64,000 bases of DNA from an uncultured bacterium (GTDB taxonomy: Bacteria > Acidobacteriota > Thermoanaerobaculia > Multivoradales > JAHZIX01): NCBI GenBank assembly GCA_965368975.1, contig CBDUPA010000001.1, positions 704,001-768,000 on the forward strand. The letters run 5' to 3'. Shown piece by piece: positions 24,681 to 40,048 of this stretch. The notes beneath the pieces were generated by a model. It ran no database searches, was not told where the DNA came from, and worked only from the letters and a program-made list of their open reading frames with translations. A program made the position numbers and the translations under genes. The first letter of the stretch is position 1. Each line of letters begins with the position of its first letter.

Positions 24681-27137
24681 ATGTTTCCCGACTTCCGTCA
24701 GGCCTTCCGCAAGCTCCGCCGCTCGCCCTTCTTCACTAGCATTGCCGTCCTGACCCTGGCCCTCGGCATTGGCGCCAACGCGGCGGTATTCAGTGTCGTC
24801 TACGGCGTGCTCCTCAAGCCGCTGCCCTTCGACGAGCCCGAGCGCCTGGTTGGCATTTGGTACGAGGCGCCTGGCTTGGGCTTCGAGCAGGTGAACCAGT
24901 CGCCGGCAACGTACTTCACGCACCGGGACGATACCGAGATGCTGGAAGATCTCGGCTTGTGGGACAACAGCCAGGTTTCGGTCACTGGGCTCGAGAAGCC
25001 GATGGAGATCGAGGCGATGTTGGTGACGGACGGCACGCTGCCGATCTTGCGCGTGCGACCGGAGCTCGGGCGCTTGTTCAGTGCCGAAGACGATCTGCCG
25101 GACGCGCCCGAGACGGTGATGCTGAGCCACGGCTTTTGGAAACAGCAGTTCGGTGGTGACGCGTCGGTGGTGGGGCAGACGCTGCGGATCGACGGCCGTC
25201 CGCGCGAGATCATCGGGGTGTTGCCCGCGGGATTCCGGGTCATCGACTTCGACGCGGCGGTGTATCTACCGATGGGTTTCGAGAAAGCACAGGCGCGCAT
25301 GGGCAACTTCAGCTACCAGGGACTTGGGCGGCTGGTGCCAGGAGCGACGCTGGCACAGCTCGAAGCCGAGATGAACCGCTTGATCCCGGTGATGACGGAT
25401 CGCTATCCGGGCGGCATCACGCTGAGCATGCTGCAGGAGGCGCGCTTCGCGGCCTACCCGCGCTCGCTCAAGCAGGATGTGGTCGGCGATGTCGGGTCGG
25501 CGCTGTGGGTCCTGCTCGGCACGGTCGGATTGGTGTTGCTGATCGCCTGCGCCAACGTCGCCAACCTTTTCTTGGTGCGCGCTGATGGCCGACAGCTAGA
25601 AGTAGCGGTACGCACGGCGATGGGTGCCAGCCGAATGTCGGTGGTGCGCTCGTTCCTGGCCGAGAGCGTGCTGTTGGGCCTTCTCGGTGGTATTGCCGGT
25701 CTGGCGCTGGCCTTTGCCGGACTGCGCTTGCTGGTGGCTCTCGGACCGCGCAGCTTGCCGCGACTGCAGGAGATCTCGATCGACCCGACCGTGATCTTGT
25801 TCACGGCTGGTGTCTCGCTGCTGGCGGGTGTCCTCTTTGGCTTGGTCCCGGGGCTGCGTAGCAGTGCTCTGGGCGGGCTCGCAGTGACTCTCAAAGAGGG
25901 AGGATATCGCGGCTCGGAGGGTCGCCAGCGGCGCCGCGCCCGTCACGTGCTGGTGGTCAGCCAGGTGGCGTTGGCTCTGGTGTTGCTGGTCGGCTCCGGC
26001 CTCATGATCCGCAGCTTCCAAGCGCTGCAGCAGGTCGACCCCGGCTTCCGCGACCCGGCCGACGTGCTGACGCTGCGCGTGTCGCTGCCACGTGCCGAGG
26101 TCGAGACGGTGGAGCAGGTGATCCAGACCTTCCAACAGATGTACCAGAACCTGGCAGCGATTCCCGGCGTCAGCGCGCTGGGAATGAGTAGCTCGATCAC
26201 CATGGACGGTTGGGACAACAACGACGCGCTGTACGTGGAGGACGCGCCGACACCCGAGGGACAGTTACCGCCGATCCGGCGCGACAAGCGGGTAGCGGGC
26301 GACTACGTGGCGACCATGGGCAACCGCCTGTTGGCCGGGCGGGCGATCGACTGGAACGACTCGCTCCGGCGCAACAAGGTCGTGATGCTCACTGAGGATC
26401 TGGCCACCACCTACTGGGACTCTCCCGCCGAGGCGATCGGCAAGCGGGTGAGTAATGACTCCAGCGGTGACTGGTACGAGGTCGTCGGCGTGGTGGGTGA
26501 TATCCGCGACAACGGTGTGTCTCAGCCAACGGTGCCCACGGTCTACTGGCCGATGGTGGTGGTGGATCCGCGGGACGGCGAGGTCAACGCGCGACGCGCG
26601 ATGGCCTTCGCGCTGCGCCACCAGCGTCCCGACGAAGCGGGCCTGGTACGCGACGTCCAGGACGTCGTGTGGTCGATCAATCCCAATCTGCCGCTGGCCA
26701 ACCTACAGGGGCTCGACGAGATTCTGGGGCGCTCGATGGCACGCACCTCGTTCGTCCTTGTGATGCTGGCGATCGCCGCGGTGGTGGCATTGCTGCTCGG
26801 CAGCGTCGGCATCTATGGTGTCACTTCGTACTCGGTGACACAGCGTACCCGCGAGATCGGCGTCCGGTTGGCGTTGGGCGCGGGGCGCGGCGACGTCAGC
26901 GGCATGGTTCTGCGCCAAGCCGCGACATTGGCGGCGATCGGTGTCGGCGTGGGGCTGGCAGCTGCGTTCGGGCTGACGCGGCTGATGACGTCTCTGTTGC
27001 ACGGCGTCGAAGCGGTCGATCCGCCGACCTACGTGGCCGTCGCGCTGGCGTTGGTTCTGTTCGCGCTGCTGGCCAGCTGGCTACCGGCGCGGCGAGCGGC
27101 GCGCACGGATCCTATGGTCGCCCTTCGCTGGGAGTAG
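24681..27137 (+). CDS. ABC permease, ADOP type
   Basis: [68 protein letters not shown]. Confidence 0.93.
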
Positions 27138-29421
27138 GATCGCTGGGCCTCTGGGTGGTAGCTAGCAGTTCCTCGACTTCGAGAACGTCCTGGTCTTCGG
27201 GCGGCCGGTGCCGGACCAGGACGTTCCGACTCTCTTGTAAGAGGACGCGCGCGCCGTCGATGTCCCCTTGCTCCAGCAGCAGAGCGCCGAGATCCTTGCG
27301 CGCCAGCGCCGTGTCCAGGTGATCGTCGCCCAACTCCGCGCGGCGGATCTCTAGTGCATCAATGTAGTGACGCCCCGCGGCCTGGAGTTGACCCCGCAGG
27401 TGGTGCAGGCCTCCGAGGCTGCTGAGGACCGCTGCCGCCTTGCGGCTGCGTTCGCCATAGATGTCGCGACGGATCGCGAGGGCTTGCAGCAGCAGTGGCT
27501 CGGCGACGTCCAGCTTGCCCTGGTGGATGAGTACGGTGCCCAGGCTGCGCAGGCTGGTGGCGACGTTGGCGTCATGCTCGCCGAACTGTGCCAGACGCTG
27601 CGTCAGAACCTCGCGGTAGATCGTCTCGGCCTCGTCGAAAGCGCCGCGTTTGAGCAGGATAGCCGCCAGGTTGCTCCGTGGCTTGGCCAGATCCCGGGTC
27701 AGGCCCAGCCGCTGGCGCATGGAAATGGCCTCGCGGAAACGGAGCTCGGCCAGGTCGAGTCGGCCGGTCCAGTAGTCGAGGTAGGCCAGATTGTTGAGCG
27801 CCGAGGCCAGATCCGGCTGGTCGCGGTCGCTCAGGGCTCGGTACTGGGCCACGGAGCTTTCGAACAGCTCTCGGGCCTCGTCGTACGCGCCGAGTCGGGC
27901 GTAGACCTCGCCCAGGCGCAACTGCAGCTTGGCGCGGGCTTCCGGGTCTTCGAGCAACTGGCGTTCTAGCCGCAAGCGCCCCTTGTCGACCAGCTCGCGC
28001 ACCGTCGGTTCGCGCCCGTTCGGCTCCTCCGTGCCGGGGCGATCCGGGGAGGCGGCCTGGAACAAGCTGACCAGGAAGTCGGTGACGCCTTCGGCCCGCT
28101 GCCGCGCTCGTTCGGTGTTGTCCAGCTGACGATCGAGCGCCACGGTGAAGGCGCTGGCCAGCACCAGCGCCAACAGCAGGCCGGCAGCGGGAAGACGGTG
28201 GCGGCGCAGAAAGCGGCTGGCGACGTAGAGGGGGCCGCCGGCGCGCGCCTCGACCGGCCGTAGCCGCAGGTGGCGGCGAAGGTCCGCGGCCAGCTGCTCG
28301 ATCGTGGCGTAGCGTTGCGACGGGTTTTCCGCGAGCGCTTTCAGGACGATGGCGTCGACATCGCCTGCCAGGGCCCGGCGCAGACCACGCACGGAACCGC
28401 GGCGCGAATCCGCCACCACCTCCGGCCGCAGCTGGCGGGTGCTGGCGTCGGAGTAGGTGAAAGTGAGGTGCCGGCTGGTGGCTCGGCTGGGCGGCACGAT
28501 GGGTTGGATTCCTGGCTGCGCTGGAGGAGTGTCGACCGGTGTCGTCTCGCCATCGGCGAGGGCGGCATGGTGGGGCAGCCGGCCGGTGAGCAAAAGGTAG
28601 AGGATGACGCCCAAGGAGTAGATATCACTGGTTGTCCCGATGGGCTCGTGCCGCCGCTGCTCCGGACTGGCGTAGTGCAACGTCATGGCGCTTTGGTGCG
28701 GATCGCCAGTGGCATCCGTGGTGTCCGTGCGCAGCAACTTTGCGATGCCAAAGTCGAGCAGCTTGGGCGTTCCGTGCGCATCCACCAGGATGTTACTGGG
28801 CTTGAGGTCGCGATGCACGATCAGGTTCTGGTGCGCCAGTTGCAGCGCTGAGCACACGGGCAACAGCAGTTCCAGGCGCTGACGGACACTGAGCCGGTGC
28901 TGGTCGCAGTAGTGGTCCAGCCGCTCGCCTTCGACGTACTCCATGGCGAAGTAGGGCACACCGTCGGCGGTCGTTCCGCCGTCCAGCAGGCGCGCGATGT
29001 TGGGATGCTCGAGGCGGGCCAGGATCTGACGCTCGACGTGGAAGCGGCGCAGCAACGACTCGCTGGCGCCACCACGCTGGACGAGCTTGAGCGCTACTTG
29101 CTGTTCGAACTCTTCCTGGCGCTCGGCCAGGAAGACGATGCCCATGCCGCCGCGTCCCAGGTTCTTGACCAGCTGATACGGACCGACTCGCTGGCCGAGC
29201 TCGAAGTCTTCCAGTTCCGGAGTCGGACGCAAGCCCGCCAGGACCGGTTGCTCGATGAAGTCGTCGAGCTGATCCTCGTAGGCCAGGAAGGACTCGACCT
29301 CGCGCAGGAGATCCGGATCCCCACCACACAGGTCGGCCAGCCAGCTGCGGCGATCTGGGTACGCTGGATCCATGGTCTGCTCGAGGATCCTCTGAATGTG
29401 TTGCCAGCGCTCGGGGCTCAC
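27112..29421 (-). CDS. Membrane Ser/Thr kinase with C-terminal TPR domain
   Basis: AGGAG then GTG at 29421; [30 protein letters not shown]; one TM; ASALNNLA-type TPRs. Confidence 0.92.
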
Positions 29422-29503
29422 GGCTGCTCTCCTGATTCTCGTGGTTCTTCCAGAGAAGCGCAGAAGCGCCACCAACCAGACCACGTCGCCGCCCGCCCGA
29501 AGT

Positions 29504-30097
29504 TCACGGACCGTCCAGGGCGCGCAGCAACCACAGGCGGGCCGAGCGCCAGGCGCGCTTGACGGTCATCGCTGAGATGTCGAGTGTCGCCGCGGTTTCC
29601 TCGATGGTCAGGCCGCCGAAGTAGCGCAGCTCGACGATGCGAGCTTGCCGTGGATCGACCTTGGCCAGCCCTCGCAGTGCCGTGTCCAGGGCTACCAGGT
29701 CGATGTCGATTTGTCCCAAGGCCGACGTCCAGGCGCCGGACGTCGGCGAGTCGAGCTGTTCGTCGAAGGGTAGCGTCGGGACGCCGCCACCTTTCTTCAG
29801 TGCCTTGCGCCTACGTGCGTGATCCACCAACACCCTGCGCATGATCTCGGCCATGCCGGCGAAGAACTGGGCACGGCTTTCCCAGTGCACGGACTGGCGA
29901 CTGGCTACGCGTAGATAGACCTCGTTGACCAGCGCTGTCGGCTGCAGGGTGTGTCCCGGATTCTCTTTGGACAGATGGATACGCGCCAGCCGGCGCAGGT
30001 CATCGAAAACCAATGGGATCAGTCGCTCGAGGGCTTCCGGGTCGCCATCGCTCCAAGCGTCGAGAAGCGCCGTGACGTCCCACTGAGGTTCAGGCAT
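29504..30097 (-). CDS. ECF sigma factor, TIGR02999/kinase-associated type
   Basis: VTALLDAWSDGD, HTLQPTALVNEVYL, PRQARIVELRYFGGLTIEETA, VKRAWRSARLWL. Confidence 0.92.
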   Translation of the reverse strand: MPEPQWDVTALLDAWSDGDPEALERLIPLVFDDLRRLARIHLSKENPGHTLQPTALVNEVYLRVASRQSVHWESRAQFFAGMAEIMRRVLVDHARRRKALKKGGGVPTLPFDEQLDSPTSGAWTSALGQIDIDLVALDTALRGLAKVDPRQARIVELRYFGGLTIEETAATLDISAMTVKRAWRSARLWLLRALDGP

Positions 30098-30383: not shown

Positions 30384-31442
30384 ATGTTTACATTCGCTCA
30401 GCAGTTCACTCTCTCATTACAACTTCCGAAGGGTGCTCGGTGGATCCGGTTGGTGTTGGCCGGCGCGCTACTCCTCGCGCCGGCGGTCAATGCTCAGCCT
30501 ACGTGCGACGCCTGGCCCGTGACGGTGGGTGAGACTGTGCGTCACGCCGGTGGCGGCGTCGGGGACAGCGCTTGCTTCCTTCTCGACGTGCCGCTGGAGA
30601 GCCTCTTGGCCGTCGATGCCTTGACGCCGGTCGACGGCGCCCGTGTGCGTCTGCACCTGCAGTCGGCTGCCGGGCACCGTCAGCTGCGGGCCAGCGGTGA
30701 CAGCCAGCTACAACTCGCGGCCGCGGGTCAGTACCGGCTGCGCGTCGAGGCCGAAGATCCCCGGAAGCCACTGCCCAGCTTCCGCTTGCTCGTCCGCGCT
30801 TTACCCTCGGTGTCTCCCGCTTCGCAGTTCATTCCGGCACCTTCCGGCGCTCACGGTGAGCTAGATACGGAACTCGAGATCGACCCGAATCTCTTGCTCT
30901 CGGGGTTGGACCTACCCAGCACGGGAACGGACGACGGGGAGCTGGACACCGAGCTGGAAATCGACCCCAACCTCGGGGAGTTGGACACCGAGCTGGAGAT
31001 CGACCCCAACCTGCTGCGCGTGGAGCTGACATCGACGCTGACATCCCTGCTGACGCGCCTGTGTGGCCAAGCCGAACTCGACGATCACGGTGACGACGTG
31101 CTGTGTGCCACGCCGCTGACGGACGGCGTCGAGGCGCACGGCGAGATCGCCAATGCGTACAGCGATGATCGCGATGTCTACCGCTTCCGAGTCGAGGAGC
31201 TGGCGACCGTAGCGTTGCAGGTGGCGGGGCAGGCGGAGTTCTGTGCTGACTTGGTCGACGCGGCCGGTCAGCACCTGGACGCGCGGTGGAGTCGGGACGC
31301 GGAGCGGCTGCGCGGCGTCGTCACGCTGGTTGCCGGTAGCTATGAGCTGCGTGTCGAGGGGTGCGGCGGGACGGGGGGGAACTATCGTGTTTCGCTAGAA
31401 GACCAAGAGACTCTTGGCGGCTCTGCCGTACCGGCTTTCTGA
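30384..31442 (+). CDS. Secreted protein with PPC-like beta domains flanking three GELDTELEIDPNL repeats
   Basis: AAGGAG then ATG; signal peptide ending AVNA; DDHGD..CATPL...GEI....DRDVYRF PPC-like domain. Confidence 0.78.
   Translation: MFTFAQQFTLSLQLPKGARWIRLVLAGALLLAPAVNAQPTCDAWPVTVGETVRHAGGGVGDSACFLLDVPLESLLAVDALTPVDGARVRLHLQSAAGHRQLRASGDSQLQLAAAGQYRLRVEAEDPRKPLPSFRLLVRALPSVSPASQFIPAPSGAHGELDTELEIDPNLLLSGLDLPSTGTDDGELDTELEIDPNLGELDTELEIDPNLLRVELTSTLTSLLTRLCGQAELDDHGDDVLCATPLTDGVEAHGEIANAYSDDRDVYRFRVEELATVALQVAGQAEFCADLVDAAGQHLDARWSRDAERLRGVVTLVAGSYELRVEGCGGTGGNYRVSLEDQETLGGSAVPAF
30855..31013 (+). repeat. Three 39-nt coding repeats (30855-30893, 30936-30974, 30975-31013) encoding an identical 13-mer
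   Basis: Direct reading: 9 synonymous and 0 non-synonymous differences between copies 1 and 2; 3 synonymous differences between copies 2 and 3. Confidence 0.95.
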
Positions 31443-31536: not shown

Positions 31537-33819
31537 TCAGAAGACGAGGATGGAGCGCAGTTTCGGATTTGCTGCCCGCAAGAAGGTGTAACCCACGCCC
31601 GCCGAGCCGAGCATCAAGCCGGGTACGGCGAAGCGCGGGGAGACCCCGGAGGGCCACTGGTTGTCTCCGGCGTACCGCTCGGCCAGGCAACGCAGTGCCC
31701 CCTCGGCCAGATGGCGGTAGCGAAGTTCACCGAGAACCTCCGCAGCCACCAATAGCGTTTCGACCAGGCCGCAGAGTCCATGGCACAGGGTCGTGTCCAG
31801 GTTGGGGCGTCTCAGCCGTGCGCGCAGCGTCTCGGCGGCCGTGGTAACTCCGGCACGGGCCGCAGGCAGATAGTACTCGGCCCCTTCGGGGTTGAGCTGC
31901 AAGGCGCGGAGCCGTGCCAGCGCGATTCCCGGTGCACCGTGGCACCAGGCAACCCTGTACCGAGGTGGAGTGGACTCCCTATTGGCTTCCGGGGAGGGTA
32001 CTCCTGGGCTGCGCAAGTCGGGCCAGTTGCCGACAGCGGCACTGAACTGTCGATCTTCGTAGGCGAAAGCTCCCCGCGCTCCTTCGAGGAAGCGTATCTC
32101 ACCGGTTTCGCGGTAGAGGTGCAGCAGGGCGAGCCCGACACCGGCATTGCCGTGGGAAAGCCCGAGCTGTGCTGGTCCGTCCTCGTCGTGAACGGCTGCA
32201 TAGCGGCCAGGCCAGATCCAGCACCCGTCTGCGGTCTCCGCACTCTCGCACAGCTGATCGCCCAGGGCGAGCGCAGCGCGCCGCAGGCGCTTGAAACCAG
32301 TGGCGTTATAGAGCTCCAGGAGCATTGGAATCGTGCCGCTGTCTCCGCTGATGAAGTCCACTGGTCGGTCTGCTTCTGGTGCGATGGCCTCTTCGAGGCT
32401 AAAAGCATCCAAGTGCTGATCGACCTGTGCAGTGAGGTTGTCGTCCCCGAGTCGGTTTGCACAGTGCCGAGTTGCCCAGAGATGTCCGGCGAGCCCGCCA
32501 AACGGACTCAGATCCTGAGCGCCTGGCTCGGCTCGTTCTGCCTGCCAGAGCGTCTGTTGGAGCAGGCCTAGCAAAGTATCTCGAAGCCGTTCCTCGCGGG
32601 TCGCCAGGAAGAGTTCCGCAAGGAAGAGCGCAACGCCGGAAGTGCCATCGTGCATTTCGGCCGGAAGTGTGCAGACCGCGGCATATCCTCCCCAACCATC
32701 GAGCTTCGAGGGAGAGCAACGGCTGAGCCAATTGCAGCGTCCTTGATACCAGTTGGCTTCTTGGCAAAGGTCGAGACCAATGCCGAGGGCACACTGAGAG
32801 AGGCTTGCTGGAGAGGGCTTTCTGTGGGGTTCGTGTCTACGAGATGCGCGGCGGATTCCTGGTAAGGGGTAGCAAGCCTGAGATCGTGGCGCCCGGTACG
32901 GCTTTGCCGGGTCCAGGCCGGCAGTGCGGAAAGCGGTATCAACGGTTTCTTCCTTGGGCTGGCCAGTTGTGAAGGCCTCTACGAGAGCTGAGGCGATCAA
33001 CTCGCATCGGTGTTCGCCGAAGCTCTCACCGCCGAGTGGCCCTTCGGCGACAGCCAGTCCGGGGGCCAGGGGCAAGGTGAAGCAGGGAGTTGCTTCATGA
33101 AGGCCATGTTCCACAGCCCGATAAAGTTCAGCGATAGCAAGAGCCACCGTGGCCCAACAGCCGGACTGCAGGTACAGAACGCCGGCATCGGCGCGTCCAT
33201 AAGCCGAGGGATCATCGGGTACCTTCGCCTTGAAGCTAATGCCGAGCGGGTCGAGTGTCTGGCAGAGCTGCTCTAGCCAGGTCGTGGCGCAGTCGGGATT
33301 CAGGTTCCAGTACAGGCGAAGTAGCCAGGGTGATTCTGAACTCGGTGAATCGGTGGTACCCAGAATGGAGTAGAAACCTGGGAGCCTGTTTGGGGCATCG
33401 CCTGGGATTCGAACCGAGATGGCGTCTCCTGGCTTCAGAGTTTCCTCGACATGACGGACATCGCTCAAAGGGCTGTGGAAGCGAATACCACCACGTTCAA
33501 CGATGCACCGCGCATCCGGGAGGATTTCTCTCAGTCTCCATCCGCTCTGCCAGCAGAACCTTCCTTCCTCGACCCGGAGAAGGTGCTGCCGAAAGAGTGC
33601 GGCCGAGTTGATCTCAGCAAGCGGGGCCATGACCGGAAGCTGCCGTGACCGCATGTAGACATGTTGGTAGAGGTGCCGAGTCAGAGATTCGACCAAGGAA
33701 CTGGACGGGGAACGGTGCAAGGTCTCGCCACACAGTCGGTAGCTGTTGCTGTCGATCAGGTCGATGGTTTCGACCGTGGTGCGAAGGTCGGTCGACCACT
33801 GTCGAGGGCCGAGAAACAT
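31537..33819 (-). CDS. HopA1-like lyase (LanY-like) fused to LanC-like lanthionine cyclase
   Basis: N-half: LRLYWNL, Y.RADAGVLY, PLAPGLAVAE.P..GESFGEHRC (HopA1-like). C-half: DG.SGVALFL, D.ISG..G, GLSHG..G, WPDLR, WCHGAPG, LCHG..G, GLMLG.AGVG (LanC with Zn ligands). Confidence 0.85.
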   Translation of the reverse strand: MFLGPRQWSTDLRTTVETIDLIDSNSYRLCGETLHRSPSSSLVESLTRHLYQHVYMRSRQLPVMAPLAEINSAALFRQHLLRVEEGRFCWQSGWRLREILPDARCIVERGGIRFHSPLSDVRHVEETLKPGDAISVRIPGDAPNRLPGFYSILGTTDSPSSESPWLLRLYWNLNPDCATTWLEQLCQTLDPLGISFKAKVPDDPSAYGRADAGVLYLQSGCWATVALAIAELYRAVEHGLHEATPCFTLPLAPGLAVAEGPLGGESFGEHRCELIASALVEAFTTGQPKEETVDTAFRTAGLDPAKPYRAPRSQACYPLPGIRRASRRHEPHRKPSPASLSQCALGIGLDLCQEANWYQGRCNWLSRCSPSKLDGWGGYAAVCTLPAEMHDGTSGVALFLAELFLATREERLRDTLLGLLQQTLWQAERAEPGAQDLSPFGGLAGHLWATRHCANRLGDDNLTAQVDQHLDAFSLEEAIAPEADRPVDFISGDSGTIPMLLELYNATGFKRLRRAALALGDQLCESAETADGCWIWPGRYAAVHDEDGPAQLGLSHGNAGVGLALLHLYRETGEIRFLEGARGAFAYEDRQFSAAVGNWPDLRSPGVPSPEANRESTPPRYRVAWCHGAPGIALARLRALQLNPEGAEYYLPAARAGVTTAAETLRARLRRPNLDTTLCHGLCGLVETLLVAAEVLGELRYRHLAEGALRCLAERYAGDNQWPSGVSPRFAVPGLMLGSAGVGYTFLRAANPKLRSILVF

Positions 33820-33823
33820 GAAG

Positions 33824-34954
33824 TCAGGCAGGGGGCGAGTCCTCCGCTGAGACAGGGGATTCCAGATCGTAGAGGTGGTGCGCCGCGTCGTCGGGATCCT
33901 TTAAGATATTCACTCCTAGCTGCGAGAGGAGAACCATGAGCGTGGTGTAGCCGGAGGCCCTGCGGCCGACCTCCTGTGCTGTTCCGAGTAACTGCACGCC
34001 AGAAAAGGCGACGGACCGCTGCAGGAGGTTTGCCGTTGCCTCCGTGGGTAACAGGGCGGCTTCCAGGTAGGCGTGCCAGAAGCCTTGGATCCATGGACGC
34101 ACCATTCTGAGTGGCATGCGAGCCGCCTGAGAGCGCTCAGCCGACTCGATGTCGGCTTCCATGGGCATGCTGGTGACCCAGAACCGCAAGAACTCGCGAA
34201 GGACGGCTCCGAGATCCCAAGCTGGATCCCCGAAGCGGGCCATCTCCCAATCCACGAGTCGCAGGGGCTGTTCGGTGTCGGCTATCCACAAGACGTTGTC
34301 GGATCGAATATCGCCGTGGATCAGCGTTTCATCCTGCCATCTGGATCGCCAGATCTCGAGAGGCTCCAGTAGCTCCACTTCTCCTTGAATGATGCGCAAC
34401 AAGTCCAACTGAGCTGGTCTCAGCTCGTTGCGGCGGGCCAGGTTTACTTTGGGAAACCAGAAGAGTCCGGGCGCACCCATGGGCAGCTTGGGTACGAAGC
34501 CGCCGAGGTCGAGCCTGCGGCGCCTCAGACCCCGGTGGACTCGGCCCAGGCTGCGGCCCAGGGCCTTGGCGATGGAGAGGCCTTGGGCAGACTCTTCGGT
34601 GCACGCCTGCAACCACGGTCGTGCGTTCCTGATCAGCTCTGCTGCCAGAACAGGATCAGGCGAGTCAGTCTTCTTTATCGCTGGTAACAGGGGCAGGAGG
34701 TCTCGGTGACCTGGAACTGCACCAAGGCATTGGTGCAGCCTTGCCTCGTACGCCAAAGGCGGGCCTTGCTCCGGTCTGCCAGAAGGTTTCTTGATCAGGT
34801 AGCCAGGTTGATTGGGAAACTCGACTCTCAAGCTTTGATTGAGCCGGAGAATCCAGGTGACACCCAGGCCATCGATCAGGTCTTTTTCGCGCAAGAAAGG
34901 ACACAACTCGAGGAGTTCTTTGCCCAGTTCTGACGGAGCTTCGAGGGGCTTCAC
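33824..34954 (-). CDS. Aminoglycoside-phosphotransferase-fold kinase (LanK-like)
   Basis: LIHGDIRSDNVL and LVDWEMARFGDPAWDLG; 4 nt from the HopA1-LanC gene. Confidence 0.85.
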   Translation of the reverse strand: MKPLEAPSELGKELLELCPFLREKDLIDGLGVTWILRLNQSLRVEFPNQPGYLIKKPSGRPEQGPPLAYEARLHQCLGAVPGHRDLLPLLPAIKKTDSPDPVLAAELIRNARPWLQACTEESAQGLSIAKALGRSLGRVHRGLRRRRLDLGGFVPKLPMGAPGLFWFPKVNLARRNELRPAQLDLLRIIQGEVELLEPLEIWRSRWQDETLIHGDIRSDNVLWIADTEQPLRLVDWEMARFGDPAWDLGAVLREFLRFWVTSMPMEADIESAERSQAARMPLRMVRPWIQGFWHAYLEAALLPTEATANLLQRSVAFSGVQLLGTAQEVGRRASGYTTLMVLLSQLGVNILKDPDDAAHHLYDLESPVSAEDSPPA

Positions 34955-34975
34955 GCTTGCGGCCCGTTCCAGGTT

Positions 34976-35179
34976 TCAGGTGGCCGGCGAAGACGGCGAG
35001 CACCACTGAGGGTGACTATTTTGAAGCGTGCGTAAGGGGGGAAACCACACACAGTCTGGTGACGGCGAAGATCTGTCGTCTTCGGACTCGACTTCGGCTT
35101 GGGCCAAATAGGTGTCCGTAAGGTGACCCTTCAAGAAGTGGCTCGCGCGAGGGGACTGGCGGTGCTGTTTTTTGCGCAT
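34976..35179 (-). CDS. Putative RiPP (lanthipeptide) precursor peptide, 67 aa
   Basis: AGGAGA-acgt-ATG; fills the gap between the receptor kinase (9 nt) and the LanK-like gene (21 nt); C-terminal 31 aa contain 7 Ser, 2 Thr and 2 Cys. Confidence 0.65.
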   Translation of the reverse strand: MRKKQHRQSPRASHFLKGHLTDTYLAQAEVESEDDRSSPSPDCVWFPPLRTLQNSHPQWCSPSSPAT

Positions 35180-35188
35180 ACGTTCTCC

Positions 35189-38100
35189 TCATAGGTTTCT
35201 GCATCCAACTGCTGGTGATCCCGCCGAGCGTACATATGTGGCGAGCTCATGATCGTCTACCAGAGTTTGGAACTGTTCGTCGGACCATTCGGCGTCGAGA
35301 AGCCGATGCACAATGGGTAACGCTTCTTCAATTCGCCCCAGCTCCAGCAGGGACTGAGCTCGAGTATCGAGAATCCGGCACTTCTCGGCTGGCAGTGCTT
35401 CCGCTAACTCGAGTGCTTTCTGCCAGCTGTTGCGAGCCAGATCCTCTTCGTCGCGTTGCTTCTGAATGCGACCAAGTTCGAGGTAGGTTCGAGCTGTCGC
35501 TTCCGTGTTTTGTGGATTCTCAGGCATATCCTGGAGAAGACGCAGGACCGTTCTTCCTTCTAGGAGAGCCAAATCCCATTTGCTCGCACTCTTATAGTGA
35601 TCCTGGAGAGCCGCATGCGACACAACTAGCCATAGTTGCAGGTGGGTGTAGGTCGGATGTTCATCTGCCACTTGTTTGAAGGTTTCACTGGCGCGGTGCA
35701 GGTAGGCCAGAGCTATCTCGGGCTGGTCCTCAAGTGCCGTGGCAAGGCCAACCCAGGTCTGTGCCAACGCTACAGGCCAAGTGTCCCGCAATGGGTCGAG
35801 TACGATCAGTTGTTGATAGAGGCGCTCGGCCTCTCGTAGTCTGTGGAGCGCGCTCGGCTTGTCAGCTGTAGCCAGATAGAGGTTTCCGAGATCGAGTTCG
35901 GTTATGGCCTGTGCTCTGAGCCAGGTGAGCTGTGTTGGATTGCCTTCCATCAGATTTCCGAGCCTTGTTCGTAACCTTTCAAGAGCACGTATTCCTTGTT
36001 GGAAATCGGACCGAGCCTGGTGGAGTGTTCCGAATAGTTGCAAGGTATCAACAAGCAGAGTTTCGGTTCGCCAGTTCGAAGTTGGCTCGAGTACAAGGTC
36101 TTCTGCAATCTGGAGCGCCTCCTCAGCATACTCCAAGCCCTGCTCGAAGTCTCCGATTCGGCAGTACAAGTGAGCGGTCTCCTGAAGATTCTGGCCTAGC
36201 AACAGGCGCCACTCGGTCGGCGCATCCTCCCTTCCTGCCAGTTGCCGCGCCAGCAGGCGAGAAGAGGCGAGACTGTCGAGTCCTTCCTGGGTTTTTTCCT
36301 GTCGAATCAGAACGGACGCAAGTCTAAGTCTTGCCCGGCTCAGGGCTCCTTGGACTCGGGCTTGGCTCGGATCTTTCTCATGTAGGGCCGCTAGGATGCG
36401 GACGGCTTTCTCATGTGCAGCTTGAGCCTGGTTGACATCCAGCCGCTCTTCTAAGACCCATCCGATGTTGAGATACGTGAGGGCGCGGCGAAGACTGTCC
36501 GCGGAGCTGAAGTCCGCCTGGGTTTGCGAGAAATGCTCCAAAGCTCTTTGAGCCACTTGATCCAGCAGGTCCAGGCGCCCCAGAGGTTCCAGATTTTCCT
36601 GCAGGTCGAAGAGCATGAAGTCGATCAACCCTTCCGCCTGCCGCCGCTGCTCTCCTTCGCGCTCCTTTGCCTGCATGGCCTGGAGCGCGAGGACAACGAC
36701 CACCACCAGGAAGATCGACGCCGTGACGGCAACTGCCTTGAGTCGTCGTCGGCGCCGGACCGCTTGCTGCGCAGCCCGCCTCGCTGCCCTTTCCGTTGCC
36801 CGTTCCGCCCGCCGTTGTTCCAGAGTGTACAGCTTCTCGGCAGCAATCAAGCCACTCGCCGGCCGCCGCTCCGGCCGGCCATCGACGAGCGTGCCAATGT
36901 CCTCGACCAGCAACTCCTCCTCGACATCCCGCTCCCAGCCGGAGGCCAAGGGCCGCTCGAAATCAGCCGCGACCAGTTGATAGAGCAGCACACCGAACGA
37001 GTAGAGATCCGCCTGGATCGTGGCCGGTCGGCCGGCAAGTAGCTCCGGTGCCATGTAGCCGAAGGTTCCCGCTCCGGAGTCCGTGGTCGGGGTTGCCGTC
37101 GCCGTGAAGCCGAGGGCAGTGAAATCTTGCCCTGCCAGCTGTTCTCGATCCGTCAGCAGTCCGATGCCAAAGTCGGTCAGGCGCGCGCGCGGGCGGCCAT
37201 CGCGGTCGCTGGTGATCAAGACGTTCTCGGGCTTGATGTCCTTGTGCAGCACGCCGACCGAGTGCGCCGCCGCCAGCGCCTCGGCGACTTCGGCGGCCAG
37301 TTCCAGGCGCACCTCGAGCGGTACTTGACTCAGGCCTCCTTGCTGCTCGGCCCAGCGCACCAGGCTGCCGCCCTCGGTGTACTCGGCCTCGACGAAGAAG
37401 GGAGCGCTGTCGAAATTCCAGTCCAGGATGCGCGCGATGTCGTCGCGCTGGCCCAGGGCTTCCTTGAGCAGGCGGAAGAGCGTCACCTCGCGCTTGAGCG
37501 CGCGCAGGCGCTCGGCCTCGAAGCAGAACTTGAAGACGCGCGCCTCGCCGGCTTTGTGGCGGGCCAGCCAGACCTCGCCGAAGCCACCTTCGCCGACGCG
37601 CTCTTCCAGCTTCCAGTGCGGTCGACCGGGAATGGGTTGACCACCGGCGGGGCGCCAGCCGAGCATGCGTTCTTCGCTGACGGACAGGGCCCGCCGGGCA
37701 TCGGTGCGTTCGGAGGGAGGTCGTAGGGCCGACAGCCCGTCGAGACCGACCTCGAACACGTCCAGAGGGGTTTCTCGGCCCCTGAGCAGGTAGCTGCCGT
37801 GCGCCAGCCAGCGAAGACTGCTCTTGCCGCCGTCTTCCGTGCCGTCGCGGGAGTCCGGATGGGCACGGCGCGCGAGGTCGAAGGCGGTACGGCTGAGCAG
37901 GATCTGGTTGCCAGCGGCGAGGTGTAAGAGCTGGCAGGCGGTTCCCTTCTCGCTACCTTCGACTTCCACCTCCGGTGCACCTTGCTGCCTCTCGGCAGAG
38001 GAGGGACGGTGCACCAGAACTTCCGCCGTGTGGATGGCGGCGCGGATCGGCAACTCGACCGCGAAGGTGGAGGCCACTTCGAGGATGGCCCGCTGGGTGG

Positions 38101-39361
38101 ACAAGGCGCAGGCGACAGCATCGGCGGGGCGTTCGAAGACGGCGAGCAGGCTGTCGGCTTTCTCGGCCACCGAGCCGCCGTACAGGGACACCAGGTCGCG
38201 CAGGCGCCGGTCGTACCGGCTCAGGAGGCTGGCCGCGGTGCCGTCGCCGTGGCGCTGGGGCAGGGCGGCGCGGTGGAGCAGTTCGACGTGGAGCAAGGTG
38301 CGAACGGCTGGAGTGCCGGTAGGAGGGGAGGGGAACCATTCGCCGGTCGCCTGCTCGCTCGTGGCGGGGTTGCCGTCGAGTTCGCCGTGGCTGGCGGAAG
38401 CCCGCCGCGTACCTGACGGCCGTGGCAGGGCAGAGGTGTCGGGCTGGAGGAGCACGCCAGGGCCAGTGCCGGCATCCGTGCCAGGGCCAGGGCCGCTTCG
38501 CAGTCGTTCCAGCGAAGCGGCCACCAGGCTGGCGTTGGCGGGGCGCTGGTGCGGGTCCTTGGCCAGCAGGGCCTCGACTAGCTGCAGCAGGTCGGCTGGC
38601 AGCCGCGGCTGCAATTGAGCTAGGGAAGTCGGAGGTTCTGCAGTGATGCGGCACAGGGTGTCGAGCAAGTTCGTCCCCTGGAAGGGGGGGCGACCGCTGA
38701 GCATCTGGTAGAGCAGGCTGCCGAGGGCGAAGAGGTCCGATCGGTGGTCGAGCGGACGGCCGCTGGCCTGCTCGGGAGACATTGCATGGACGGTGCCGAC
38801 CAGGGCTCCCGCTTCGGTCAGGGTCTGGGAGCCGATAGGGTCCTGGAGGAGCGGGTCTTGGGACGACGTGTCCCTGCGCCAGAGGCAGTGCACCAGGCCG
38901 AAGTCGAGGATCTTGGCATGTCCGGCGGCGGTCAGGCGGACGTTCTCGGGCTTCAGGTCTCGGTGGACGAAGCCGCGAGCGTGCGCCTCGGCCAGACCTT
39001 GGGCGATCTCCGTACCGAGACGTAACGTCTGGTCGAGGTCGAGGGGGCCGTCTGTCAGCAGATCGGCCAGGCTCGGCCCCTCGACGTACTCCATGACCAG
39101 GCAATCGCCGTCGTCGGTGGAAACGATGTCGAAGATCTGGACGATCGCCGGATGGTTGAGGCCCGCCACGGCCCGGGCTTCGCGCCGGAAGCGCTCACGT
39201 CGCCGCGGATCGACTTCCAGGTCTTCGCGGATGCGCTTGATGGCGACTTTCCGGTGCAGGCGCTCATCGCGCGCCAGGAAGACCTCTCCCATCCCTCCGA
39301 CGCCGAGCCTGGACTCGACGCGGTAGGAACCAAAGCTGAGTTCGACTGATGCTGTGGGCAT
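35189..39361 (-). CDS. Receptor kinase: Ser/Thr kinase, degenerate class III cyclase-like domain, second kinase, TM, TPR-like domain
   Basis: Kinase 1: GVGGMGEV/HRDLKPEN/DFG. Cyclase-like: GD..A.LL..YDR..RDL...GG...D..L.VFERP.DAV..AL...IR.AIH..EV. Kinase 2: GEGGFGEV/HKDIKPEN/DFG/GYMAPE. TM: VAVTASIFLVVVVVLAL. Confidence 0.88.
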   Translation of the reverse strand: MPTASVELSFGSYRVESRLGVGGMGEVFLARDERLHRKVAIKRIREDLEVDPRRRERFRREARAVAGLNHPAIVQIFDIVSTDDGDCLVMEYVEGPSLADLLTDGPLDLDQTLRLGTEIAQGLAEAHARGFVHRDLKPENVRLTAAGHAKILDFGLVHCLWRRDTSSQDPLLQDPIGSQTLTEAGALVGTVHAMSPEQASGRPLDHRSDLFALGSLLYQMLSGRPPFQGTNLLDTLCRITAEPPTSLAQLQPRLPADLLQLVEALLAKDPHQRPANASLVAASLERLRSGPGPGTDAGTGPGVLLQPDTSALPRPSGTRRASASHGELDGNPATSEQATGEWFPSPPTGTPAVRTLLHVELLHRAALPQRHGDGTAASLLSRYDRRLRDLVSLYGGSVAEKADSLLAVFERPADAVACALSTQRAILEVASTFAVELPIRAAIHTAEVLVHRPSSAERQQGAPEVEVEGSEKGTACQLLHLAAGNQILLSRTAFDLARRAHPDSRDGTEDGGKSSLRWLAHGSYLLRGRETPLDVFEVGLDGLSALRPPSERTDARRALSVSEERMLGWRPAGGQPIPGRPHWKLEERVGEGGFGEVWLARHKAGEARVFKFCFEAERLRALKREVTLFRLLKEALGQRDDIARILDWNFDSAPFFVEAEYTEGGSLVRWAEQQGGLSQVPLEVRLELAAEVAEALAAAHSVGVLHKDIKPENVLITSDRDGRPRARLTDFGIGLLTDREQLAGQDFTALGFTATATPTTDSGAGTFGYMAPELLAGRPATIQADLYSFGVLLYQLVAADFERPLASGWERDVEEELLVEDIGTLVDGRPERRPASGLIAAEKLYTLEQRRAERATERAARRAAQQAVRRRRRLKAVAVTASIFLVVVVVLALQAMQAKEREGEQRRQAEGLIDFMLFDLQENLEPLGRLDLLDQVAQRALEHFSQTQADFSSADSLRRALTYLNIGWVLEERLDVNQAQAAHEKAVRILAALHEKDPSQARVQGALSRARLRLASVLIRQEKTQEGLDSLASSRLLARQLAGREDAPTEWRLLLGQNLQETAHLYCRIGDFEQGLEYAEEALQIAEDLVLEPTSNWRTETLLVDTLQLFGTLHQARSDFQQGIRALERLRTRLGNLMEGNPTQLTWLRAQAITELDLGNLYLATADKPSALHRLREAERLYQQLIVLDPLRDTWPVALAQTWVGLATALEDQPEIALAYLHRASETFKQVADEHPTYTHLQLWLVVSHAALQDHYKSASKWDLALLEGRTVLRLLQDMPENPQNTEATARTYLELGRIQKQRDEEDLARNSWQKALELAEALPAEKCRILDTRAQSLLELGRIEEALPIVHRLLDAEWSDEQFQTLVDDHELATYVRSAGSPAVGCRNL

Positions 39362-39391
39362 AGGTCTCCAGGTAAGGGGACTGAGAGAAGG

Positions 39392-40048
39392 TCAACTCGT
39401 GACTTGCTTGTTTCTTTCCGGCTTGCCTTTCTCCAGAGTGTGCAGCAGCCAGAGACGCGCGCTGCGCCACTCTCGCTTGACAGTGCGCGGTGAGATCTCG
39501 AGGGTATGTGCGGTCTCTTCGACGGTGAGACCAGCAAAGTAGCGCAGTTCGACGATACGGCTCTGCCGAGGAGCCAGTTGTGTCAGCTCGTGCAGGGCTC
39601 GGTCGAGATCGAGCAAGTCGACGGTGCGGTGCCGATGGCCCCCTGCGCTCCAAGCCTCATCGATCGGAATGATGGTGCAGTCGCCGCCATGCCGCATCGC
39701 TTGGTTGCGGCGGGCGTGGTTGATCAGGAGCCGCCGCATGGTGGTGCCCATGTAGGCGAAGAATTGCGCTCGGCACTGCCAGCTCAGCTCGCGCCCCCCC
39801 GTCAAGCGCAGATACGCCTCGTTCACCAGGGCGGTCGGCTGTAGCGTGTGGCCCCGACGCTGACGCTGTAGGTGGAAGGCGGCGAGTTGACGCAGGTCGT
39901 TGAGCACCAGTGGAAATACGTGCGCCAAGGCAGAAGCGTCCCCCCGAGCCCAGGCGTCGAGAAGCTGGGTGACCTCTCCGGACGGTGGCTCGGTGAAGGC
40001 GCGGCCTTCTTCGTTCGGCGGAGACTCCTGAGGAATGCTACCTACCAT
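39392..40048 (-). CDS. ECF sigma factor, TIGR02999/kinase-associated type
   Basis: VTQLLDAWARGD, HTLQPTALVNEAYL, PRQSRIVELRYFAGLTVEETA, VKREWRSARLWL. Confidence 0.92.
   Translation of the reverse strand: MVGSIPQESPPNEEGRAFTEPPSGEVTQLLDAWARGDASALAHVFPLVLNDLRQLAAFHLQRQRRGHTLQPTALVNEAYLRLTGGRELSWQCRAQFFAYMGTTMRRLLINHARRNQAMRHGGDCTIIPIDEAWSAGGHRHRTVDLLDLDRALHELTQLAPRQSRIVELRYFAGLTVEETAHTLEISPRTVKREWRSARLWLLHTLEKGKPERNKQVTS

Follow-up and report, generated by a model that had tools for sequence, protein, structure and literature searches.

Whether three closely spaced genes of an uncultured bacterium make up a working lanthipeptide cassette, and whether the smallest of them encodes its substrate, is the question raised by a 64,000-nucleotide (nt) stretch of contig CBDUPA010000001.1 (assembly GCA_965368975.1; Acidobacteriota, Thermoanaerobaculia, Multivoradales, JAHZIX01; genome of 7.1 Mb), referred to here, at its full length, as the window. 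Its minus strand encodes, one after the other, a peptide of 67 amino acids, a LanK-type kinase of the APH fold and a protein of 760 amino acids that joins a HopA1-like (LanY) lyase to a LanC-like cyclase, with gaps of 21 nt between the peptide and kinase genes and of 4 nt between the kinase and fusion genes. All three open reading frames (ORFs) are present and co-directional, as a first-pass annotation of the window had described them, and the union of lyase and cyclase that it proposed holds: both lie in a single ORF with no internal stops. The locus probably represents a working three-gene kinase/lyase/zinc-cyclase lanthipeptide cassette of class V, similar to class Vb, in which lyase and cyclase are fused. 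It is best filed as a fused-enzyme class Vb-like variant whose precursor belongs, as a short-leader member, to a large and so far unannotated family and, judging from its sequence, this copy of the cassette is likely to be functional.

The kinase and the fused lyase-cyclase

The domains first proposed for the two enzymes (APH, HopA1 and LANC_like) are all borne out by the profile hidden Markov models of Pfam. The kinase matches APH (PF01636) with an expectation value (E) of 2.3e-13 and 50.9 bits, against a cut-off of 23.2, and the fusion protein matches both HopA1 (PF17914; E 2.2e-38, 132.2 bits against a cut-off of 22.7), over profile positions 4-170 of 170, and LANC_like (PF05147; E 4.6e-52, 177 bits), over its residues 386-755. 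Two NCBIfam models match below their cut-offs. These are LxmK (NF038156), which matches the kinase at 1e-25 and 90.6 bits (cut-off 315) and by this score marks it as a distant LxmK relative and no equivalog, and the LanL model, which matches the LanC part at 4.7e-33 and 114.5 bits, far under its cut-off of 650. Among solved structures, chain A of 9dk1 ('Kinase') is the best or second-best relative of the kinase, as is chain B ('Lyase') of the HopA1 part; according to the available part of PMC12141560, 9DK1 is the lexapeptide dehydratase LxmKY and its kinase chain is LxmK. The solved relatives of the LanC part are LicM2 and NisC.

The residues expected of active enzymes are in place. The fusion protein carries every invariant column of an alignment of 22 fusions, including R168, Y170, K199, R209, D211 and R271 in the lyase part. 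The SHG, WCHG and CHG motifs recorded for the cyclase at first reading are indeed kept, with H556, C626-H627 and C679-H680 on invariant or nearly invariant columns of the same alignment. Residues K55, E70, H213, D215, N220 and D235 of the kinase are invariant among 32 kinases; we take K55 and E70 to be ATP-binding, H213, D215 and N220 to be catalytic and D235 to be metal-binding. The roles of the conserved residues are carried over from APH kinases, OspF/HopA1-type lyases and NisC, and would apply here by analogy.

Distribution of the kinase-fusion pair

Related loci were collected by a pattern scan (one genome per species, 467 relatives), from which 80 genome loci were kept, and 80 more loci form a metagenome set. 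The genome loci span Acidobacteriota, Planctomycetota, Myxococcota, Chloroflexota, Bacteroidota, Pseudomonadota, Actinomycetota, Bacillota, Cyanobacteria and Verrucomicrobiota, and include one archaeal metagenome-assembled genome (MAG) of the Nitrososphaeraceae; of the named loci, the two that come nearest in synteny or similarity are both from Acidobacteriota MAGs. By tblastn, 72 of the 80 genome loci have a kinase homologue directly upstream of the fusion, the remaining eight being mostly cut by contig ends or having no fusion. A kinase match is also found in 53 of the 80 metagenome loci, many of whose contigs are short or cut by ends.

The fusion itself is also widespread. In a word-seeded protein search, the first 57 entries listed (P0001-P0057) are its nearest relatives; both PF17914 and PF05147 are present in 53 of them, from many phyla, and PF05147 alone in the other four (P0052 and P0054-P0056). 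Close relatives did not emerge from a single-protein search of genome contigs, the genomes of sixty relatives gave no ortholog above about 41% identity, and a metagenome scan gave no fusion relative closer than about 40%.

Clustering of all ORFs of at least 90 amino acids in the 66 genome loci with a delimitable kinase ORF yields three widely common families, namely the fusion, the kinase and the ORF that precedes the kinase. The next family, composed of Hanks-type Ser/Thr kinases, occurs in nine of the 66 loci and every other family in eight at most. Since no further gene family is found in more than nine of these loci, it is the family as a whole that looks minimal, and not the cluster of the window in particular.

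A precursor family with a conserved leader box

In 30 loci, BLAST clustering puts the ORF that precedes the kinase into a single family, and the leader profile finds this family before the kinase, at E<1e-8, in 46 of the 80 genome loci and 28 of the 80 metagenome loci (74 of 160 in all). About 110 residues at the N-terminus are common to its members. This region has the consensus elements LVPDP, GFLGKS, RLY, PLGG and VWV and closes with an FLxGxI box; the tail behind it is hypervariable, measures 24 to about 775 residues, abounds in Cys, Thr, Ser and Pro and is repetitive in many cases. Pfam and NCBIfam, searched at E<=1 with six members, contain no family for this leader region. In a profile search of 1.84 billion representative proteins, 3,451 match at E<=0.001 and 2,221 at E<=1e-10, and in most of the 150 matches listed the domain stands at or near the N-terminus.

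An AlphaFold2 model of the leader domain, built from 36 aligned sequences, is a six-stranded beta domain with a mean predicted local distance difference test score (pLDDT) of 86.3, in which residues 11-95 are mostly above 90. The stretch with the FLxGxI box has a pLDDT of about 51, which suggests that in the model a flexible segment follows a folded module. Foldseek returns no match in the PDB at E<=0.001 for this domain, and VIA-align against 48,161 chains gives a best Z of 3.8, to weak Sm/SH3-like small barrels, with no convincing fold match.

Two further observations concern the architecture of these precursors. In L020, L042, L046, L047, L049, L060, L072, L079 and other loci, the tail consists of 385-775 residues of repeated Cys-Pro-Thr-rich units, and such members are protein-sized substrates for a lanthipeptide-type machine. 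In addition, a tandem pair of leader-domain precursor genes stands before one kinase gene at L028:4844-5867, L029:4358-5530 and L072:2822-5733.

The 67-residue peptide of the window

The peptide has the features ascribed to it at first reading: a basic N-terminus, the segment FLKGHLT, the acidic linker EVESEDDR and a 31-residue tail with 7 Ser, 2 Thr, 2 Cys and 7 Pro. It ends in Ala-Thr, with no C-terminal Cys, and the 42-residue stretch past the box holds 2 Cys, 8 Ser, 2 Thr and 7 Pro. Pfam gives no match for it. Its residues 3-35 align with positions 87-117 of the 122 of the leader profile, placing HFLKGHLTDTYL on the box, and as a single sequence it scores 12.3-12.9 bits (E 4-6e-6). When all six-frame segments of at least 20 amino acids in the genome are ranked by the same profile, the segment of the peptide comes first of 148,748, with 12.9 bits and a genome-wide E of 0.56, and the runner-up scores 9.7 bits. 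That the best profile match of the genome sits in the precursor slot is the main reason for accepting the peptide as a relative of the family and not as a chance ORF.

The proposal that this small ORF is the precursor, the weakest point of the first-pass annotation, is thus strengthened by the end-of-leader box of the family, by the top match in the genome and by the predicted docking on the kinase through the box, described below. One part of it has to be revised: the box is common to the family, but the first-pass annotation was made unaware that most members have a leader domain of about 110 residues that is absent here. Of the family leader, the peptide keeps the box alone and is without the beta domain of about 90 residues.

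Predicted docking on the kinase

The complex of the kinase, with its own alignment of 32 kinases, and the 67-residue peptide was predicted in three runs and compared with three controls. The complex scores 0.71, 0.69 and 0.70, against 0.34 for the best control; in the calibration of this score, the mark is reached by 58 of 80 solved complexes and by 2 of 110 mismatched pairs. At least 49% of the contacts agree between runs and the pLDDT of the partner is at least 46. On the peptide side, the predicted interface comprises residues 9-21 and 23-31, that is, the box and its flanks, and on the kinase side residues 185-193, 260-282 and 329-361, including two positions that do not vary among the 32 kinases, Q345 and N349. 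The box is thereby predicted to lie on the C-lobe of the kinase, and the model supports binding. This agrees with the prediction for LxmKY in the available part of PMC12141560, where an AlphaFold 3 model places the leader of LxmA on the C-lobe of LxmK through hydrophobic contacts.

Proposed route of modification

On the reading of a working cassette, the 67-residue peptide would be the substrate. The FLxGxI box of its short leader (FLKGHL) would dock on the C-terminal lobe of the APH-type kinase, which would phosphorylate Ser and Thr residues of the Pro/Ser-rich C-terminal part. The HopA1-like domain would eliminate the phosphate to leave dehydroalanine or dehydrobutyrine, and the LanC domain would add Cys43 and Cys60 to two of the dehydro residues, giving at most two thioether rings. 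We infer the action of the enzymes on the peptide, and likewise the modified residues, the ring pattern, the end of the leader, export, cleavage and activity. The expected steps (phosphorylation, elimination and thiol addition) are textbook lanthipeptide chemistry and reveal no new mechanism; the new points are comparative rather than mechanistic, and consist of the FLxGxI box, the leader family with its beta domain and the short-leader sub-type.

Other short-leader precursors

Precursors with a short leader were also sought in the 26 genome loci that have a kinase ORF but no match to the leader domain. In three of these (L057, L071 and L087), the ORF before the kinase consists of 11-17 residues, the box and then a Cys-containing tail. 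In three metagenome loci (L112, L117 and L124), a YLRGPI box comes after about 27-35 residues, and the core is common with L071. These six precursors score 6.2-11.4 bits against the leader profile.

A further locus with a weaker candidate, L014, from a Thermoanaerobaculia MAG, brings the other loci with similar short-leader precursors to at least seven. It has the gene order of the window, with a tetratricopeptide repeat (TPR) protein, a peptide, a kinase and a fusion. Its TPR protein is 24% identical (E 3.8e-6) to residues 931-1354 of the 1390-residue protein encoded next to the peptide in the window, and its small ORF, of about 73 amino acids, has a ribosome-binding site and carries HFVDGLILGEHL twelve residues from its start.

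Genomic context

The features of the locus are collected in Table 1.

Table 1. Position of the cassette, its elements and the two genes preceding it, in window coordinates
Feature	Position	Strand	Basis
Putative precursor peptide gene, 67 aa, short-leader form	34976..35179	-	ATG start; ORF list, leader-profile match, slot directly before the kinase
AGGAG ribosome-binding site	35185..35189	-	5 nt ahead of the peptide ATG; shares bases with the TGA stop of the upstream kinase-TPR gene
FLKGHL, conserved FLxGxI leader box, residues 15-20	35120..35137	-	Aligned to the family box at the end of the leader domain
Predicted core region, residues 26-67: Pro/Ser-rich stretch containing Cys43 and Cys60, preceded by the acidic linker	34979..35104	-	Composition; putative leader/core border
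LanK-type kinase (APH fold), 376 aa	33824..34954	-	GTG start; Pfam APH, NCBIfam LxmK below cut-off
LanY-LanC fusion protein, 760 aa	31537..33819	-	ATG start; PF17914 and PF05147
HopA1-like phospho-Ser/Thr lyase domain, fusion residues 143-309	32893..33393	-	PF17914
LanC-like zinc cyclase domain, fusion residues 386-755	31555..32664	-	PF05147
1390-aa protein: two Ser/Thr kinase domains, cyclase-homology region, TPR repeats	35189..39361	-	Pfam/NCBIfam
Extracytoplasmic function (ECF) sigma factor at the head of the same-strand gene row	39392..40048	-	PF07638, 6.6e-52

The domain-scanned neighbours include no decarboxylase, methyltransferase, protease or exporter adjacent to the cassette, as had been noted from the start, and genes for a LanD decarboxylase or for LanX are absent within about 8 kb to either side. 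The other neighbours encode a sigma-54 activator with an FHA domain, a Kelch/PQQ propeller protein, a TonB-dependent receptor, a MacB/FtsX permease and a GmrSD-like nuclease; none of those listed is a tailoring enzyme of peptides that are made on the ribosome and modified after translation, a peptidase or a dedicated exporter. A promoter scan gives no sigma-70-like site and no minus-strand terminator between the genes, a result that is uninformative for a row driven by an ECF sigma factor. Convergent with the fusion gene is a gene for a 352-residue protein (30384-31442, plus strand), with a signal-peptide-like N-terminus, three copies of GELDTELEIDPNL and no Pfam family above threshold.

The upstream kinase-TPR gene, the 67-residue ORF and the LanK gene share one reading frame, with TGA stops plus 3 and 7 codons between them. 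Read-through of TGA, which would join the upstream gene, the peptide and the kinase, was considered and rejected: the kinase is already full length relative to its relatives, the L014 peptide is not in frame with its own upstream gene, and a shared frame arises by chance in 1 of 9 cases.

The G+C content at third codon positions (GC3) differs along the row. It is 0.81 in the first 900 codons of the 1390-residue kinase-TPR gene (36662-39361) and 0.57 in its TPR third (35189-36661), 0.66-0.70 in the peptide, kinase and fusion genes, and 0.74-0.81 in the ECF gene and in the second kinase-TPR gene of the window. By these values, the 1390-residue gene looks chimeric in composition, its TPR third being low in GC3 like the lanthipeptide genes and close to them in value. 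Together with the synteny of L014, the GC3 contrast suggests a joint arrival of TPR part and cassette. The window contains two pairs of an ECF sigma factor gene and a Ser/Thr kinase-TPR gene inside 13 kb (27112-30097 and 35189-40048, minus strand), and the larger kinase has sub-threshold NCBIfam matches to 'TOMM system kinase/cyclase fusion' and 'peptide modification system cyclase'.

Elsewhere in the genome, contig C11 holds a second, degenerate copy of the cassette (locus L183:1604-3949, minus strand), with a 336-residue APH-like kinase and a 438-residue protein with a partial HopA1 domain. Its LanC part matches the first 50 or so positions of the Pfam model alone, the zinc-ligand region being absent, and the copy is preceded by no precursor-like ORF. 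There are also eight further LanC-like matches, several of them in open frames of 800-1190 residues (such as C18:2723-3760), which indicate several other lanthipeptide-type loci. The regions of related genomes that match these further LanC-like frames do so through a match to the LanC part of the fusion. All other LanC genes of this genome lie on other contigs or 170 kb off.

Alternative explanations

The main rival to a working cassette is that the 67-residue ORF is a decayed remnant: a long-leader ancestor would have lost its N-terminal domain upon joining the kinase-TPR gene, leaving an inefficient stub and enzymes that are orphaned or being lost. The full leader domain found at 74 of the related loci is absent from the peptide and, in the six-frame search at E<=10, from the genome, the lower GC3 of the cassette and the TPR third relative to the flanking genes suggests a junction made by transfer, and the copy on contig C11 is clearly degenerate. 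This explanation is nevertheless unlikely: both enzymes keep all residues that are invariant in the family, the stub has kept the box, two Cys, many Ser and its ATG start with a good ribosome-binding site, and binding by the box is predicted by the model. At least six other loci also combine a short leader and box with a Cys-rich core, and the core of L112, L117 and L124 is conserved with that of L071. Several other observations nonetheless weigh against a working cassette. The full leader domain was not found in the six-frame translation of the genome at E<=10, and lack of the beta domain of about 90 residues might impair recognition of the peptide. A tblastn search with the peptide matched none of the 80 genome loci and none of the 80 metagenome loci, the L014 peptide scores 0.4 bits against the leader profile, so that its case rests on position and synteny, and the closest relative of the fusion among the matches listed (P0001) has 52% identity. 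The decayed copy on C11 indicates that such cassettes degenerate in this genome. Finally, the complex score may partly reflect likeness to the solved LxmKY structures, and its calibration holds roughly, the alignment of kinases being self-made.

Two other explanations question, respectively, the peptide and the cyclisation. The small ORF could be a chance frame in GC-rich DNA, with the substrate of the enzymes encoded elsewhere or being a protein (the neighbouring kinase, for example). The region is overlapped by dozens of spurious ORFs of like size, the ORF is in the same reading frame as both its neighbours and tblastn gives no homologue, but a chance frame would have to top the 148,748 segments ranked against the leader profile, none of the others exceeding 9.7 bits, at exactly the precursor slot of the family. 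Together with the ribosome-binding site and the distance of the other LanC genes of the genome, this makes the explanation very improbable. The product could, alternatively, be dehydrated and remain uncyclised, or cyclise spontaneously, the LanC domain having another role; class Va, which lacks LanC, would be a parallel, and for triantimycins the available part of PMC11186320 documents rings that form spontaneously once LanK/LanY have dehydrated the peptide. The zinc ligands and the SHG histidine are, however, conserved over 22 fusions, and the union of lyase and cyclase is kept across many phyla, so that a LanC domain without a part in ring formation is very unlikely.

The preferred reading of a working cassette can be extended to a wider proposal, which we put forward tentatively and with more doubt than conviction. 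The FLxGxI box alone might be the recognition element of the family of more than 3,000 members, with the 67-residue peptide as a natural minimal substrate and the beta domain of about 90 residues as a folded module that stays attached. Instead of small secreted peptides, the family might make thioether-stapled proteins whose tails of Cys-Thr-Pro repeats reach up to about 775 residues, and the sub-type of the window might be wired to the pair of an ECF sigma factor and a Ser/Thr kinase-TPR protein whose TPR part travelled with the cassette. The fused lyase-cyclase type spans many phyla, and its precursor family of thousands is without a Pfam or NCBIfam model. The locus is the smallest test case seen, with three genes, a substrate of 67 residues and a leader cut down to the conserved box, and it suits direct questions about recognition by the enzymes and about the purpose of the beta domain in other members.

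Comparison with known systems

In class IV, LanL unites in one polypeptide a Hanks-type kinase, an OspF-type lyase and a C-terminal zinc-binding LanC domain. The cassette has the same three activities and likewise a zinc-binding LanC domain at the C-terminus, but its kinase is separate and of the APH type, and its lyase is of the HopA1 type.

Class V lanthipeptides are made by a stand-alone APH-type LanK and a HopA1-type LanY, as described in the available parts of PMC9486802 and PMC10604976, and the window shows both traits, an APH-fold kinase and a HopA1-like lyase gene 4 nt after the kinase gene. According to PMC11186320 and PMC12291118, as far as their text was available, class Va uses LanD and LanX to form aminovinyl-cysteine and has no LanC, and class Vb has a LanC cyclase, with mSmoA as its sole characterised member. 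The LanD, the LanX and the C-terminal Cys of class Va are all absent from the locus. Of the traits of class Vb, it has the LanC-type cyclase with a Cys-Cys-His zinc site (C626, C679 and H680) but not three stand-alone enzymes; of those of the long-leader family, it has the FLxGxI box and a Cys-containing tail directly before the kinase but not the beta domain. LxmK/LxmY (9DK1) and CaoK/CaoY share with it the partnership of kinase and lyase (PMC12141560 and PMC9486802, in their available parts), the chains of 9DK1 being its best solved relatives. These systems differ from it in having LanD and LanX, aminovinyl-cysteine and no LanC, and the kinase of the window scores far under the LxmK cut-off.

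The fused architecture itself has been in print as a prediction since the report of Eyles et al. 2021 (Chem Sci, PMC8153245), who mined 1,340 HopA1 proteins, 96% of them beside a phosphotransferase, and described HopA1-LanC fusions as a possible new uncharacterised lanthionine synthetase with small peptide genes near. Those clusters have exactly the same architecture, with a phosphotransferase next to the fusion and small peptide genes near, and differ in that they stem, in the available part of that report, from genome mining without biochemical data. The first-pass annotation had called the peptide uncharacterised, and no biochemical study of the fused type was found in the searched literature, outside which lie subscription journals and supplements. 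The architecture nevertheless has precedents, as it was reported in 2021 and a class Vb system has been characterised. That system, SmoK/SmoY/SmoC with the precursor SmoA from Streptomyces, is attributed to Pei et al. 2022 (J Am Chem Soc 144:17549) in the available parts of PMC11186320, PMC12291118 and PMC12328550. The cassette resembles it in the APH-type kinase, the HopA1-type lyase and the LanC-type zinc cyclase, with no decarboxylase and no aminovinyl-cysteine, and differs from it in that the three Smo enzymes are described as separate, whereas here lyase and cyclase form one protein of 760 residues.

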